This document shows, piece after piece, positions 1 to 33,589 of a stretch of DNA of 37,770 bases. Both the position numbers and the translations under genes were made by a program. This stretch comes from a virus, in the UHGV virus genome UHGV-1359486; one strand, written 5' to 3'. A model generated the notes under the pieces. That model saw only the letters and a program-made list of their open reading frames with translations, made no database searches and had not been told where the DNA came from. Within the stretch, counting starts at the first letter, position 1. Every line of letters begins with the position of its first letter.

Positions 1-1055
1 TGCACGACAAATTAAAGGCCGAACAATGGCGAATTGAGCAGGTAGGGGACTTCCCGGACTATACCTATGAGGAAGCCTGCCTGCGGTGGCTTGAGGAAAA
101 AGCAGATAAAAAATCGATAGAGGATGATAAGAACTTTATCACTTTCTGGCTTGAGTACTTCGAGGGTGTCCGGCTGAAGGATATAACCGAGAATGCCATT
201 TACAAGATCATCAGTAAGATGACAAACAAGCATGCTGAAAACTGCTGGAGAAGGAAAGCTGACACAGCAAAAAGGAAGGGAAAGGAGGTGCCGCTGTTTA
301 CATCGAAGCCTGTCACTACGGCTACAAAGGCGCGATACCTTTCTTTCATTAAGGCGCTACTCAGAGCGGCAGAAAGAGAATGGAAGTGGATAGAAAAGTC
401 ACCTGTGATAAAAATCCCATCTATTCGTGATCGGAGAGTCCGGTGGCTTGAGCCTGTCGAGGCGAAAAGACTGATTGATGAATGTCCTGAGCCATTAAAG
501 TCAGTCGTCAGGTTCGCTCTGTCAACCGGCCTGCGTCGTTCGAACATACTTAACCTTGAGTGGCAGCAGATAGACATGCAGCGGAAAGTGGCATGGATTT
601 ACCCTGAAGACAGTAAATCAGGTAAAGCGATCGGTGTAGCCCTGAACGATACCGCATGCAGGGTTTTGCGCAGCCAGATTGGTCGCCATCACAAATGGGT
701 ATTTGTCCACACTGATCCGTCATACAGGAATGACGGAACACCGGTTGCGGCAGTAAGAAAGATGAGGCCGGATTCTAATACAGCATGGAGAGCAGCATTA
801 AAAAGAGCCGGTATCGATGATTTCCGTTTCCATGACCTGAGACACACCTGGGCAAGCTGGCTGATCCAGTCTGGCGTTCCGCTTTCAGTGTTACAGGAAA
901 TGGGCGGGTGGGAGTCGATAGAAATGGTGCGCAGATATGCCCATCTGGCACCAAATCATCTTACCGAACATGCGAAGCAAATAGATGCCATTTTTGACAG
1001 TTACGTCCCAAATACGTCCCAAGGTGAAAAACTGGCATCGGGAGATAATCACTAA
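1..1055 (+). CDS. int: Tyrosine integrase, 3' part (continues from 37662..37770)
   Basis: Open from position 3 without start; C-terminal catalytic motifs HDLRHTWAS and MVRRYAHL (R...HxxR...Y); close to P22 Int as recalled. Confidence 0.9.
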
Positions 1056-14702: not shown

Positions 14703-16790
14703 TTACATGGTTTGAGGTATCTCGGCTGGTGAGCCGGAAGGGGTGTTTTGTTGTTGCTGATCTGCAACCTTGTTCAGAAGTTCGATAGCTTTCATCACTG
14801 CGCCCTGCTGCAAGTCCTCGGCCTTAGCCAAGGTCAATGTAGTGTTTGCCTGTGATTCAAGTGCGTTATTCTGAGCAGTAAATGCTTTGATTTGTGTTTC
14901 CTGTGCCCTTGTCTGAGCGCTGACGAGCTCAGCCTCGGCTTTCTTCTGTTCTGCCATGGCTGCAACCATCATCGGGTCTTGTTTGCCCTGTTGCGCCTGC
15001 TGAGCCTCCATTAACCACTGCTGTTCTTCATCAGTCTCCGGCTTTTTCAGGCCGTTAACTATCAGCTCGCGGTTAGCGTAGTCGCGGATGTACTCAACGC
15101 CTTTACCCTCCATCATGTTGGCATAGGTCAGCATCATGACATTCCACATAGGATGCTCAGGCGGAACCTTGGTGATCAGGTCGCCTATCTCAGCGCGGGC
15201 TGCATCTTTCTGTGACTGGAAGGACGGGCCGACATCAGTGTAAGTTTCATACTTCCCACGGATATCGTTTTTAGTGACTACCTGCCCCTGCTGGAAGTCG
15301 ACAGACTGAGACATCAGCTCAACGTTGCTTTCATTACCATCTTCGGCAGTGGTGACAACGGTTCGCGTTGTGTCATAAATATCACTGGCGATTGACGCGT
15401 AAATCTCACCATCGCGACGCATGGCGATTGCCAGGTTATCCTGAAACACGTATGTCTCAAGGTCGATGCGGGAGTTAAGCTGATTGACGGTATCAAATGC
15501 CACCTGACCATTTGCGGCAGACGGGTCAACGCCGATACGAGCAACCTCTTTTGCTGCCTGTGTGGCGGCGTCAAGCATGCCGGCATCCGCGGGTGATATC
15601 TCCGGATTCTCCATATAGGAGACCGGCCCGGGTGGTAAATCATTGCCGCTCTCATCCGTTCTGTTCAGCAAATAGTAGGGGTAATCATCATCACCGCTGT
15701 ACATATGCTGATACCCATCTATCTGCTCGTCATAAAAGAACGGCTTTTTCTTCGGTGATTTTGCTACCGTATCAGCGCCCTTTGACAGGATGAAGTTACG
15801 CAGCCTCTGAGCATCTTTAGACAGGCGGACAACGCCCTCATACAACTCAGTATCATCGAAGAACGACCACTCGCCATACACAGGCACAATCGGGATATGC
15901 TCACCAGCAACCGGAATTCTGTCTTTCAGTATCGCCGTGCTGGTGATGATGGATTTGTACACCCTGCGGCGCTTAACTTTGCGTTCACCTGCCTTCTCGG
16001 CACCTTCAGCTGACAGGCGCTCAATGTGATCTTTAATCTCACTGGCGTAATAGCTCTGAAAGTCCATTACTGTCGGGTTGTAGTAGACGAATACCTTCTC
16101 GTTTTTCTCCTCAACCTCGTAGTGTTCGGCGACATAAATTGTTTTGCCGCTCGACCAGGTGAACAACCAGTCAGTGTTGGGCGACTGGAATGTCGGAACA
16201 TCGTCAGGATCTAACCCGTATTGCTCTGCGAATTCTTCCCACCCGTCAATATTGAGAGCGTGAATTATCGTGCAGCGCTTGGCATCAGATTTATCCATCT
16301 CCTTCGCGTTACAGTCCCATATCACATGAGTGCATGACTCATGGATGGGTTTGCGCCGGATAATTTGGTTATTGCTGGTCGGGTTATCGTCCTCATACTC
16401 GGTGACAATGCGCCAGGCACCGACACCGCATTCAATCTGCTCACGGACTGCCACGTTGACAGAAATCTTTGAGCTGTTATTGCGCATGTCTGTGCGGTAC
16501 ATCCCCATGAGGATGTCAGCAGCATCAGGAGAGGCTGTATCTTTCGGCCTGTACTGAACCTCTATCGGATTCTTGCGCATCTCAGCAACGAGCTTACGCA
16601 CCATAGGGCGCACGACATCAAACTGTCCGCGATACTGCAATGTGACATAGTTTTCTAACCAATCATCCCACTGTGAAACGCGACTGAAAAACAAATCATT
16701 CCTCGCCTCCGTTCGTGCTGCTTCAGACGCGGAGTAATCGAGGTCGAATTTGCGCAATATGCTATTCAGCCGCTCATTTTTATCGACCAT
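14703..16790 (-). CDS. Portal protein (P22 gp1 family)
   Basis: 695 aa; [35 protein letters not shown] as in P22 portal. Confidence 0.95.
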
Positions 16791-18289
16791 TAATGTCTCC
16801 TGATAGGCTTAATCGGGGCGGGAATTACTTTCTGTTTTGTCTTTTTGATATCGCGTAGTTGCTTGGCAAATCTGCGCATCATGTAGGCGTACCGGACAGC
16901 ATCCAGAACATCGTCGTTTGTCTTGGCGATCTTCCCGTTTTCATCGCGGTGATACAGCCTGAATTCTTCAAAGAACGGCTCGCAGGTATTAAATACGCGA
17001 AACCGGCCATCAAGCATCAGATCACGCAGCTCATTAATACCGGACTCAACCGAGTTACCGCCCTCAGCAAATGTCGCATGCTCTTTCAGCATTGCGAAAC
17101 CAGCGTCTGTATACTGCGCCTTTAACTGTTCACCACCGCCTTTTTCATGCTGATGTCCGTCATGAGGCCAAGCCACAGGTATTTTCTTCGCCCATGATTT
17201 AACAGCGCCCCATGCCTGAACAGCGGTGTTCTCTGACTTCTTCCAGACTCTGGCAAGATAAAAAACATCTTCGTCTTTATCCCACCACAGCTGAATGTGC
17301 GCCTGCGGGTGATCCCACCCGAAGTCTTGGCCGTCAATAATGTAAAAATGCTCAGGGCACTCAAACGGCTGACACTTAATTGTTTCTTCCGGAATCTGAT
17401 ATATGCGGCCGCTTCCCATTGTCGGAATACCACGAGCACGAGCCTCACGTTCATGTTCAGGGTATGAAGCGACAATCCTTTCTTTCTCATCGTCAGTGTA
17501 GTGATCGGCATCATAGATAGTCATGTTGACCACCTTCTGAGCCTTGGACGGGTTCTTCAGGAACTTTTCTACTACTGATGACATCCCCATAAGCGGGGTA
17601 AAAGTGAGGATGGAAAACTGGCCGTATTTGTTGGTACGGGTAAGCCCTTCGGCGTAAATGGAATATGGTGGCTCTTCATCGAACCAGACACCGTGTATTG
17701 TGTCCCCCTGCCATCTTGCGCGGCCTTGTGAATACGGCTTGAAGTAGCAGATAGACATGCCATCTTCAACACCATCAGCGTTGTGGTGACGGATAAGTAT
17801 GTGGTCGACAAGGTTCGGGTAAAACGGTGACTTCTTCCAGCTGATCACATCCTCTTTAGGAATAGAGCCGTACCCAATTTCGTTATTTTCTTCAACTCGA
17901 CCACAGAGAATACGCTGAGTGGTTTTTGTTACTGTCTCGTTTGTTTCGCCGCCAACCCACCACACGTTAGGCTCAAAAAACCGCTTACCGTTCCACTCGC
18001 CTTTCCATGCGCCATCTTCAGGATACCCTTTCGTGCCCGGATAACGCCCGGTAAGGTGAAATGCTACCTCTGCACCGCCTGTGTACGACTTACCAAGCTG
18101 GTTACCGGCCATAAAGCAGCGCTCAAAATACTCACTACCGGCATCAATAAACTCACGTTGCTTCGCATACGGAGAATATTCAAACAGTTGATGCGTCTTT
18201 CTGTATTCGTCTTCTTCTTCCAGCAATTCAAGCAGCTCGTATTGCTCGTCGTCGCTCAGGTTATCAAGTATCTGATCCAGATTTTCCAC
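16790..18289 (-). CDS. Terminase large subunit (P22 gp2 family)
   Basis: Walker A-like [12 protein letters not shown] at 18287-18289 with AAGGAG upstream gives 499 aa; alternative GTG at 18328 (track ORF). Confidence 0.85.
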
Positions 18290-18755
18290 GGTTGAATAAC
18301 TCCTTAATGCGAGAGCGGCGCTTGTCACGGTCTCCCTTGTCCGGAGTTACATCCTCGACCTCTTGGCGATCTTTGAGACCTAAATCACGTGCGATAATGT
18401 TTGCGTTAAGCAGGTCAGCGGCGGCACCGGAAAATTTCTGGTCATAGATGACTTTCTCTGCTCGCGTTGTGACTGCCATAAAATCTTCACGGGCGCGGTA
18501 CAATTGCCATGTGCTATCAGCTATATCCAGAAACAGGCAAAGCCCTGAGATTGTCATGGCTCTCATTTTAGCGATGGGTTCCTGTGTCACTTCGCCCTGA
18601 TAACTAAATGCTTTCATTTCCCACAGCGGGTTATCCTCTACCCACTGGAAATACTCACAGCATGCATTCCATAAATCATCAGGAGACTCGAACTTCGGGC
18701 TTCGCCCGTGACTGCTTCTAGCCTCCCAGAATCTGTTTCCTTTTGGTGCGGCCAT
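18264..18755 (-). CDS. Terminase small subunit (P22 gp3 family)
   Basis: 163 aa; [18 protein letters not shown]...[15 protein letters not shown]...[24 protein letters not shown] matches P22 gp3 as recalled. Confidence 0.9.
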
Positions 18756-19582: not shown

Positions 19583-19609
19583 TAAAAAAGCCCCGCTAGT
19601 TAGCGAGGC
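19583..19609 (-). terminator. Candidate rho-independent terminator overlapping the 3' end of Rz
   Basis: Minus-strand 9-bp stem (one G-U pair) followed by UUUUUU. Confidence 0.35.
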
Positions 19610-20048
19610 ACTGAGTCTTTATGTAGTCATGGAGCCCACGAATTTGGGCATCCATTGTTTCAAGCTGCTTGCGGAGATGAAAATAATCCGGTTCAGCGTC
19701 TCTCGCCAGGGTGGCGGGTCTGCCATCATCCATGCTGGAGGTGGTATCGGTTCCGCTTTTGGGGCATTCAGCGCGGACGTACACCCGCTTGTTGCCAGAC
19801 TTAACAGCATCACGCAGGCTATCAATTTCAGTTTTGGCATTGGTTAACTCCTGCGTGTACATAGTGTCGAGTTCGTGAAGTGACTGAATGCGGGATTTGT
19901 AGCCTTTGTTGATGGCGACCTGCTCTGCAAACTGAGAGGAAAGCAGCTGATAGTTATCTTTCAAGCCACCATACAGATGCAGGAGAAGCAGCAGACTGAC
20001 AGCCAGTATTCCGCAAATGCCTAGCCATATCTTTGTTGCGGTGCTCAT
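19596..20048 (-). CDS. i-spanin (Rz-like)
   Basis: 150 aa, N-terminal TM helix then coiled-coil region; directly after endolysin. Confidence 0.8.
   Translation of the reverse strand: MSTATKIWLGICGILAVSLLLLLHLYGGLKDNYQLLSSQFAEQVAINKGYKSRIQSLHELDTMYTQELTNAKTEIDSLRDAVKSGNKRVYVRAECPKSGTDTTSSMDDGRPATLARDAEPDYFHLRKQLETMDAQIRGLHDYIKTQCLAN
19619..19840 (-). CDS. o-spanin (Rz1-like lipoprotein) embedded in the Rz gene in another frame
   Basis: Signal peptide with lipobox-like ATSGC, Pro-rich mature part; fully nested within Rz. Confidence 0.65.
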   Translation of the reverse strand: MPKLKLIACVMLLSLATSGCTSALNAPKAEPIPPPAWMMADPPPWRETLNRIIFISASSLKQWMPKFVGSMTT

Positions 20049-31991: not shown

Positions 31992-32787
31992 CATCAGCAA
32001 TGATGACTATCACAACGGCCCCGGGATAAGTAAATCGCAGCTGGACCTTATCGAACAATCACCGGCTGACTTTATCTGGCAACGGAATGCCCCGGTGGAT
32101 GAGGAAAAAATAAAGGCTCTGGATTTCGGGACCGCTGTTCACTGCCTTTTGCTTGAGCCTGATGAGTTCAATAACCGGTACAGGATAGGGCCGGAAGTAA
32201 ACAGACGCACATCCGCAGGGAAGCAGGAAGAAAAGGAATTCTTCGAAATGTGCGAAAAAGAAGGAATCACGCCAATCACCCATGACGACAACAGGAAGTT
32301 GATGATCATGCGGGATAGTGCCATGGCCCACCCTATCGCCAAATGGTGCCTTGAAGCTGAAGGAAAAGCCGAGAGCAGCATTTACTGGAATGACAAGGAA
32401 ACGGACATTCTTTGCCGGTGCAGGCCGGACAAACTGATAGGACAACACGGATGGATTGTCGATGTGAAAAGCACCGCGGACATGTCCCGCTTCGAACGCG
32501 CTTTTTACGATATGCGCTATCACGTTCAGGACGCGTTTTACTCAGACGGATATAAGGACCTGTCCGGAGAGTTACCGGTGTTCGTATTTCTCGCGGTCAG
32601 CACAACAATCGACTGCGGAAGATATCCGGTCCGTGTATTCATTATGGATGATGTGGCAAAGGATGCCGGACGGTCCGCATACAAACAAAATCTCAGAACA
32701 TACACCGAGTGCATTAAAACGGATGAATGGCCCGGTCTGAGAACACTATCACTGCCACGCTACGCAAAGGAACTGAGAAATGAGTAA
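31969..32787 (+). CDS. RecE-type exonuclease (nuclease domain only; PD-(D/E)XK)
   Basis: GIYDDISNDDYHNGPGISKSQL, SSIYWND, CRCRPDKL, GWIVDVKSTAD, YHVQDAFYSDGY match the C-terminal nuclease domain of E. coli RecE as recalled. Confidence 0.8.
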   Translation: MQPGIYDDISNDDYHNGPGISKSQLDLIEQSPADFIWQRNAPVDEEKIKALDFGTAVHCLLLEPDEFNNRYRIGPEVNRRTSAGKQEEKEFFEMCEKEGITPITHDDNRKLMIMRDSAMAHPIAKWCLEAEGKAESSIYWNDKETDILCRCRPDKLIGQHGWIVDVKSTADMSRFERAFYDMRYHVQDAFYSDGYKDLSGELPVFVFLAVSTTIDCGRYPVRVFIMDDVAKDAGRSAYKQNLRTYTECIKTDEWPGLRTLSLPRYAKELRNE

Positions 32788-33589
32788 CCCACCAATCGCA
32801 CAGGCGGACCTGCAAAAAGCACAAGGGACCGCGGTTAAAGAAAAAACAAAAGACCAGCAGCTAATCCAGTTCATAAACCAGCCAGGCATGAAAGCTCAAC
32901 TAGCAGCCGCCCTGCCGAGGCATATAACACCGGACCGCATGATCAGGATTGTCACCACCGAGATACGGAAAACTCCATCACTGGCAACCTGTGACATGCA
33001 AAGCTTTATCGGCGCTGTTGTTCAGTGCTCGCAACTTGGCCTTGAGCCAGGTAACGCATTGGGCCACGCCTACCTCCTTCCGTTCGGCAATGGTAAAGCG
33101 GCATCAGGGCAATCAAATATTCAGTTAATTATCGGATATCGCGGCATGATCGACCTCGCCCGCCGATCCGGTCAAATTATCAGTATATCGGCCCGCACTG
33201 TGCGCGAAGGTGACAGTTTTCATTTTGAATATGGCTTAAACGAGGACCTTACACACGTACCCGGCGAAAATGACTCGGGCCCAATCACCCACGTTTATGC
33301 AGTGGCCCGCCTGAAAGAAGGTGGTGTTCAGTTTGAGGTTATGTCTTTCTCTCAGATTGAGAAGGTCCGCGATTCAAGCAAGGCCGGTAAAAATGGTCCA
33401 TGGGTATCTCACTGGGAAGAAATGGCGAAAAAGACCGTCATCCGCCGCCTGTTCAAATATCTGCCGGTATCTATCGAGATGCAGAGGGCCGTCATTCTGG
33501 ATGAAAAAGCAGAGGCCAACGTGGACCAGGAGCATGCATCTATTTTTGAAGGTGAGTACGAAACTGTATCGCCGGAATCCGCGGGGTAA
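32780..33589 (+). CDS. recT: RecT-family single-strand annealing protein
   Basis: 269 aa; LLPFG, IGYRGMIDLARRSG motifs; coupled downstream of the nuclease. Confidence 0.85.
   Translation: MSNPPIAQADLQKAQGTAVKEKTKDQQLIQFINQPGMKAQLAAALPRHITPDRMIRIVTTEIRKTPSLATCDMQSFIGAVVQCSQLGLEPGNALGHAYLLPFGNGKAASGQSNIQLIIGYRGMIDLARRSGQIISISARTVREGDSFHFEYGLNEDLTHVPGENDSGPITHVYAVARLKEGGVQFEVMSFSQIEKVRDSSKAGKNGPWVSHWEEMAKKTVIRRLFKYLPVSIEMQRAVILDEKAEANVDQEHASIFEGEYETVSPESAG

Follow-up and report, generated by a model that had tools for sequence, protein, structure and literature searches.

Gene organization of the terminase locus

The window, that is, the whole stretch of 37,770 nucleotides analysed here (UHGV virus genome UHGV-1359486), carries on its minus strand a small terminase gene (TerS) of the P22 gp3 type, followed by a large terminase gene (TerL) of the P22 gp2 type. 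The TerS gene (18264..18755, (-)) is an ORF of 163 aa that opens with ATG at 18755 and closes with TGA at 18266-18264. The TerL gene (16790..18289, (-)) encodes 499 aa from its best-supported start and closes with TAA at 16792-16790. The longest ORF in the TerL frame begins farther 5', at a GTG at 18328, and runs to the same TAA, giving 512 aa and a 65-nt overlap with TerS. When TerL is read from the GTG at 18289, the overlap is 26 nt (18264..18289, (-)), with TerL in the +1 frame relative to TerS. The preliminary description of this locus had set the ORF from GTG 18328, with its 65-nt overlap, beside the alternative GTG 18289, with AAGGAG 10 nt upstream, a 26-nt overlap and a 499-aa product, and every one of these figures was correct.

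TerS matched the Pfam family GP3_package (PF16677, E 8e-31), and its residues 1-160 could be aligned with the P22 gp3 nonamer structure 3p9a (E 2e-89). TerL matched Terminase_6N (E 1e-41) and Terminase_6C (E 2e-33), showing the N-terminal ATPase domain and the C-terminal RNase H-like nuclease domain of a P22 gp2-type protein, and the P22 nuclease-domain structure 4dkw aligned to it with an E value of 1e-131. Read from 18289, TerL has the same length as P22 gp2 (499 aa), and the two proteins align end to end without a gap, with 422 of 495 residues identical (85%). In addition, a deposited 33-residue peptide named 'Terminase, large subunit' (PDB 6vi1/6xmi; 6vi1_M) matched residues 3-33 of the window TerL with its residues 2-32, and its residue 1 coincides in the alignment with the P22-type TerL start. 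Since the TerS sequence is exactly that of a named Morganella morganii DNA-packaging protein that occurs on contigs of chromosome size, the window is, judged from sequence, a P22-like prophage of M. morganii.

At the 3' end of TerL, the stop codon and the ATG of the portal gene have one base in common within TAATG (16788..16792, (-)), as in P22 gene 2/gene 1, and an AGGAGA lies a few bases 5' of this junction. An Rfam scan of the window returned no family at gathering score. ARAGORN called a 97-nt tRNA-Gly(tcc) at 32908-33004 (-), within the plus-strand ORF 32780-33589; this call is probably a false positive, because no Rfam tRNA match was obtained at threshold.

On the other side of TerS, a 150-aa ORF (19596-20048, (-)) is located 3' of holin/endolysin-like ORFs, and its size and position match those of the Phage_lysis Pfam genes of related M. 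morganii loci. A 73-aa ORF (19619-19840, (-)) lies inside it in another frame and begins MPKLKLIACVMLLSLATSGC, a lipoprotein-type signal. Taken together, the two ORFs look like an embedded Rz/Rz1 spanin pair. Among eight M. morganii loci with identical TerS (L088-L095), the lysis cassette 5' of TerS is mosaic, with holins of Phage_holin_3_1 or 3_3 and endolysins of CHAP, Peptidase_M15_3 or Peptidase_M15_4, and the TerS-TerL-portal block is constant.

Candidate start codons of TerL and their Shine-Dalgarno sequences

The P22-type start, GTG 18289 (18287..18289, (-)), lies 13 codons 3' of GTG 18328 and in frame with it. Its Shine-Dalgarno (SD) sequence, AAGGAG (18300..18305, (-)), is made up of the Lys-Glu codons (AAG GAG) of the TerS tail motif RIKELF and is separated from the GTG by a 10-nt spacer (TTATTCAACC). 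The anti-SD pairing for this start amounts to -8.7 kcal/mol at a spacer of 9-10 nt. The upstream GTG (18326..18328, (-)) derives from the wobble T of a TerS Arg codon, CGT (18329-18327). Given that the ORF is open from 18328, TerL of the Morganella/Proteus clade might be made wholly or partly from this codon, as a 512-aa protein with a 13-residue extension and maybe as a second isoform. The SD-like GGGAG in front of it has an anti-SD pairing of -8.4 kcal/mol, similar to that for 18289, but the spacer is just 2-3 nt. A spacer of this length is too short for efficient initiation, whereas about 10 nt is close to the longest spacing that still works efficiently. The SD geometry favours 18289 over 18328.

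Two CTG codons farther 3', at 18280 and 18259, are without SD pairing, the value for CTG 18280 being -3.3 kcal/mol. Taken from one sequence alone, a second in-frame GTG together with a single AAGGAG hexamer is statistically unremarkable. What goes beyond chance is the conservation of the GTG and the upstream hexamer across relatives.

Conservation of the TerL start among relatives

The TerS/TerL junction was compared across 88 loci, comprising 80 viral contigs, phage records and the window, with 35 distinct junctions. A GTG at the position homologous to 18289 was kept in 88/88 loci and in all 35 distinct junctions, and AAGGAG, CAGGAG or AAAGAG stood 10 nt 5' of it in every locus. In an alignment of seven sequences (window, P22, L, MG40, Dewey, Brookers and BPM-V3), AAGGAG was invariant, and GTG 18289 coincided with the annotated start of gene 2 in P22 (AF217253 and BK000583), phage L and MG40. 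The preliminary description had called the TerL start ambiguous and had proposed an alignment with P22 gp2 as a check. The ambiguity exists when the sequence is read by itself, and it is present in public annotation as well, but the comparison with relatives resolves it: the alignment places the start at GTG 18289, which corresponds to the P22 gene 2 start and which, alone among the candidates, is conserved throughout the family.

The GTG homologous to 18328 was confined to the Morganella/Proteus clade of the window, where its retention in 20/20 loci, including all nine distinct clade junctions, is a point in favour of the 512-aa product. It is missing in the other 68 of the 88 loci, however, and outside the clade the codon at this position is GCG or GAG. 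No in-frame ATG, GTG or TTG was found 5' of the homologous TerL start in 68/88 loci, and in six (L024, L025, L027, L043, L064 and L081) an in-frame stop occurs 1-5 codons 5' of the GTG, inside the would-be extension. In P22 itself, the segment from the in-frame TGA to the accepted gene 2 start holds no ATG, GTG or TTG.

The origin of the upstream GTG can be traced to a single base. It spans two TerS codons, taking GT from the Arg codon and the final G from the codon behind it; the window and the Proteus phages have CGT as this Arg codon, and P22, L, MG40 and Dewey have CGC, which gives GCG in the TerL frame. The 13-codon extension thus exists because a silent third base, CGT rather than CGC, spells GTG in the TerL frame.

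The same start position was found in two distant relatives, from Serratia and Vibrio fluvialis, in which TerS belongs to Pfam Terminase_2 and TerL begins within the 3' end of TerS. The Serratia relative has AAGGAG, 10 nt and GTG, with a TAA two codons 5'; the Vibrio fluvialis relative has CAGGAG, 7 nt and ATG, with an in-frame TAA immediately 5'. Since the start position is shared even with these two, the N-terminus of TerL is constant, give or take one residue, throughout the family.

A further feature of these two loci concerns TerS. The TerS body is of the Terminase_2 type and the proteins have 186-190 aa; in the region compared with 18264-18340 of the window (L096 541-660 in Serratia and L097 541-660 in Vibrio fluvialis), the last ~20 residues carry the same motif, R[SA]RI[KQ]ELL..G, in which the SD is embedded and TerL begins. 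When the TerS body is exchanged, its tail, together with the SD and the N-terminus of TerL, seems to move along with TerL as one module.

Substitution pattern of the 13-codon extension

The coding status of the extension (18290..18328, (-)) was assessed from the substitutions in its 39 nt. Ten of the 15 variable columns were third positions of TerS codons; the TerL frame reads these as second positions. When codons differing from those of the window were counted, the amino acid was altered in 27/159 in the TerS frame vs 140/164 in the TerL frame. Within the window clade, where the upstream GTG is present, none of 12 differing codons was non-silent in the TerS frame and all 12 were non-silent in the TerL frame, with changes such as Ala to Asp, Glu or Val. 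This substitution pattern is that of the TerS-only sequence farther 5'. Judged by it, the 13 extra codons are coding sequence of TerS only and not of TerL, which makes the 512-aa reading an artefact of choosing the longest ORF.

A TerL made wholly or partly from GTG 18328 is accordingly hard to reconcile with the clade's own codon differences. Neither the protein collection nor any of the 8 M. morganii gene calls contains the 512-aa product, which would, moreover, lengthen the very segment that is homologous to the TerS-binding N-terminus of P22 TerL. The open frame, the retained GTG and the pairing of GGGAG speak for such a start, which is nevertheless very unlikely. A more specific version, in which GTG 18328 and its close GGGAG would permit low-level initiation and yield a minor 512-aa isoform with altered binding to the TerS tail, acting as a clade-specific regulator of terminase assembly, is slightly less probable still.

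TerL starts in public annotation

This gene family is annotated with no fewer than five TerL starts, counting that of the program-made ORF track. The GTG 18289 type is the start of the 499-aa TerL in P22, L, MG40, Dewey and 5/8 M. morganii loci, and of a 498-aa TerL in Brookers and in Providencia protein P0015. The 512-aa version from GTG 18328, the longest ORF, occurs in the first-stage ORF track only. The exact 499-aa TerL was found in a collection of 15 billion proteins, and the exact 512-, 496-, 489- and 440-aa versions were absent from that collection. Among the eight M. morganii loci with identical TerS, 499 aa was called in five and 512 aa in none; agreement between gene callers, which share heuristics, does not count as independent evidence.

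Some M. morganii and P. mirabilis annotations start TerL three codons later, at CTG 18280 (18278..18280, (-)), with a product of 496 or 495 aa that begins 'MDQILDNL'. This start is used for P0012 and P0014 and was called in 2/8 M. morganii loci. CTG is, however, a rare initiator codon, AAGGAG is 19 nt away from this one, and the local anti-SD pairing is the weak -3.3 kcal/mol given above. Moreover, the homologous Leu in the P22 group is codon 3 of the annotated gene, and the GTG three codons 5' is conserved universally. A 496-aa TerL from CTG 18280 is therefore highly improbable.

A start past the TerS stop would remove the overlap altogether. The annotation of Proteus phage BPM-V3 uses such a codon, the CTG at 18257-18259 (-) that gives 488 aa, and one of the eight M. 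morganii gene calls uses an internal ATG that gives a 440-aa protein beginning 'MAGNQ'. Neither codon has an SD, and both starts remove some or all of the conserved N-terminal segment homologous to residues 1-58 of P22 TerL, to which TerS binds; the 440-aa form begins ~12 residues ahead of the Pfam ATPase-domain match. An overlap-free start has next to no likelihood.

For annotation, 16790..18289 (499 aa) is the recommended call in place of the 512-aa longest ORF. The CTG starts (496/495 and 488 aa) and the internal ATG start (440 aa) in public records are unsupported by the comparison, and such truncated starts shorten or eliminate the counterpart of the N-terminal region through which P22 TerL binds TerS. 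This correction is relevant for cloning or modelling P22-type terminases, and it implies no new biology.

The pac homologue and the putative subunit-binding segments

The preliminary description had supposed that the overlap may be functionally dense, on the grounds that the pac site of P22-type phages lies inside the small terminase gene. P22 pac occupies positions 4..25 of BK000583 (GAAGATTTATCTGAAGTCGTTA), where gene 2 starts from 203. Its homologue in the window is the 22-mer GAAGATTTTATGGCAGTCACAA (18467..18488, (-)), which is identical to P22 at 14 of 22 positions and lies outside the overlap. It is located 178-199 nt upstream of the TerL start (18488..18467), the same distance as that between P22 pac and gene 2, and a pac site within the TerS/TerL overlap was rejected on this ground. 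In P22, the cutting zone is reported to span ~120 bp around pac (PMC11226127); a zone of this type around the window homologue would end before 18328.

Of the 12-bp pac core, AAGATTTATCTG, 8/12 positions are matched in the window homologue, which falls short of the published pseudo-pac pattern (PMC11226127). The TerS residues encoded at the pac homologue differ as well, being EDFMAVT in the window and EDLSEVV in P22. The eight mismatches in the 22-mer, together with these altered TerS residues, suggest that the pac specificity is plausibly different from that of P22.

In P22, TerS residues 140-162 bind TerL, and TerL residues 1-58 are the minimal TerS-binding domain (PMC9611059). The corresponding segments in the window are TerS residues 140-163 (18267..18338, (-)), homologous to the TerL-binding tail in the 3p9a alignment, and TerL residues 1-58 (18116..18289, (-)), homologous to the minimal TerS-binding domain; by homology, both would have the same function. 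The overlap proper encodes the most variable residues of both proteins, namely the last 5-6 residues of TerS and residues 3-6 of TerL. The idea of a dense junction thus holds on the present analysis, with the SD inside TerS codons and the neighbouring subunit-binding segments, both already described, as the reasons for it, whereas pac drops out as a reason.

Proposed translation of TerL

The homology of the start, its conservation, the stops in relatives and the substitution pattern are direct observations. With these in hand, we infer that translation of TerL begins at GTG 18289 and yields 499 aa, matching the annotation of P22 gp2, with a probability of about 0.93. Ribosomes would bind AAGGAG, which the conserved TerS tail R-S-R-I-K-E-L-F supplies through its Lys-Glu codons, and would initiate at GTG 18289, where 26 nt of TerS still remain, reading TerL in the +1 frame.

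Both the start codon and the SD of TerL are situated inside the TerS coding sequence, the layout of a coupled overlapping gene pair, and at the TAATG of the TerL/portal junction the downstream start and SD are likewise within the upstream gene. From the TerS/TerL overlap and the TAATG together, the operon can be seen as one probably built for coupled translation, and the overlap arrangement would couple the expression of the two terminase subunits. The weak GTG start and the long spacer may keep TerL output below that of TerS, which would agree with the P22 assemblies reported as TerS9:TerL2-5.

As a possible basis for coupling, a hairpin (18350-18343 with 18303-18296) that would hide the SD until translation of TerS was predicted in the window, and it was rejected. 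It scored no better than shuffled sequences (z -0.98), there was no covariation or compensatory change in it, and its central pair was broken in 17/22 relatives.

Comparison with P22 and the Proteus phages

The closest phage records are those of the Proteus phages vB_PmiP_Brookers (OL539469) and vB_BPM-V3 (PQ539422), which are P22-like, of the Lederbergvirus type, and share 80-83% DNA identity with the window across TerS and TerL. From the upstream GTG through the 26-nt overlap, their junction is that of the window save for two bases that are silent in TerS. TerL has 498 aa in these phages. The annotations of the two conflict, with GTG as the TerL start in Brookers and the CTG after the TerS stop in BPM-V3.

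P22 gene 3 and gene 2 stand in the same order as in the window, with TerS followed by TerL and the portal gene. As in the window, the P22 TerL gene has its GTG inside the TerS 3' end and is read in the +1 frame, with AAGGAG from Lys-Glu codons 10 nt upstream. The differences between the two are small. The window clade carries a 3-nt insertion that makes its overlap 26 nt long, compared with 23 nt for the P22 group; the TerL N-terminus reads M-E-N-L-D-Q in the window and M-E-L-D-A in P22, and the TerS tail reads KSGSDT in a protein of 163 aa compared with TGRDS in one of 162 aa. The window has the extra in-frame upstream GTG from its silent CGT, which P22 lacks. The segments homologous to the P22 TerS(140-162):TerL(1-58) pair are conserved in the window and are encoded by adjacent and partly overlapping DNA, and their binding to each other may be expected by homology. 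Collectively, the TerL gene start is the ordinary and already known arrangement of P22 gene 3 and gene 2, here in a Morganella prophage.
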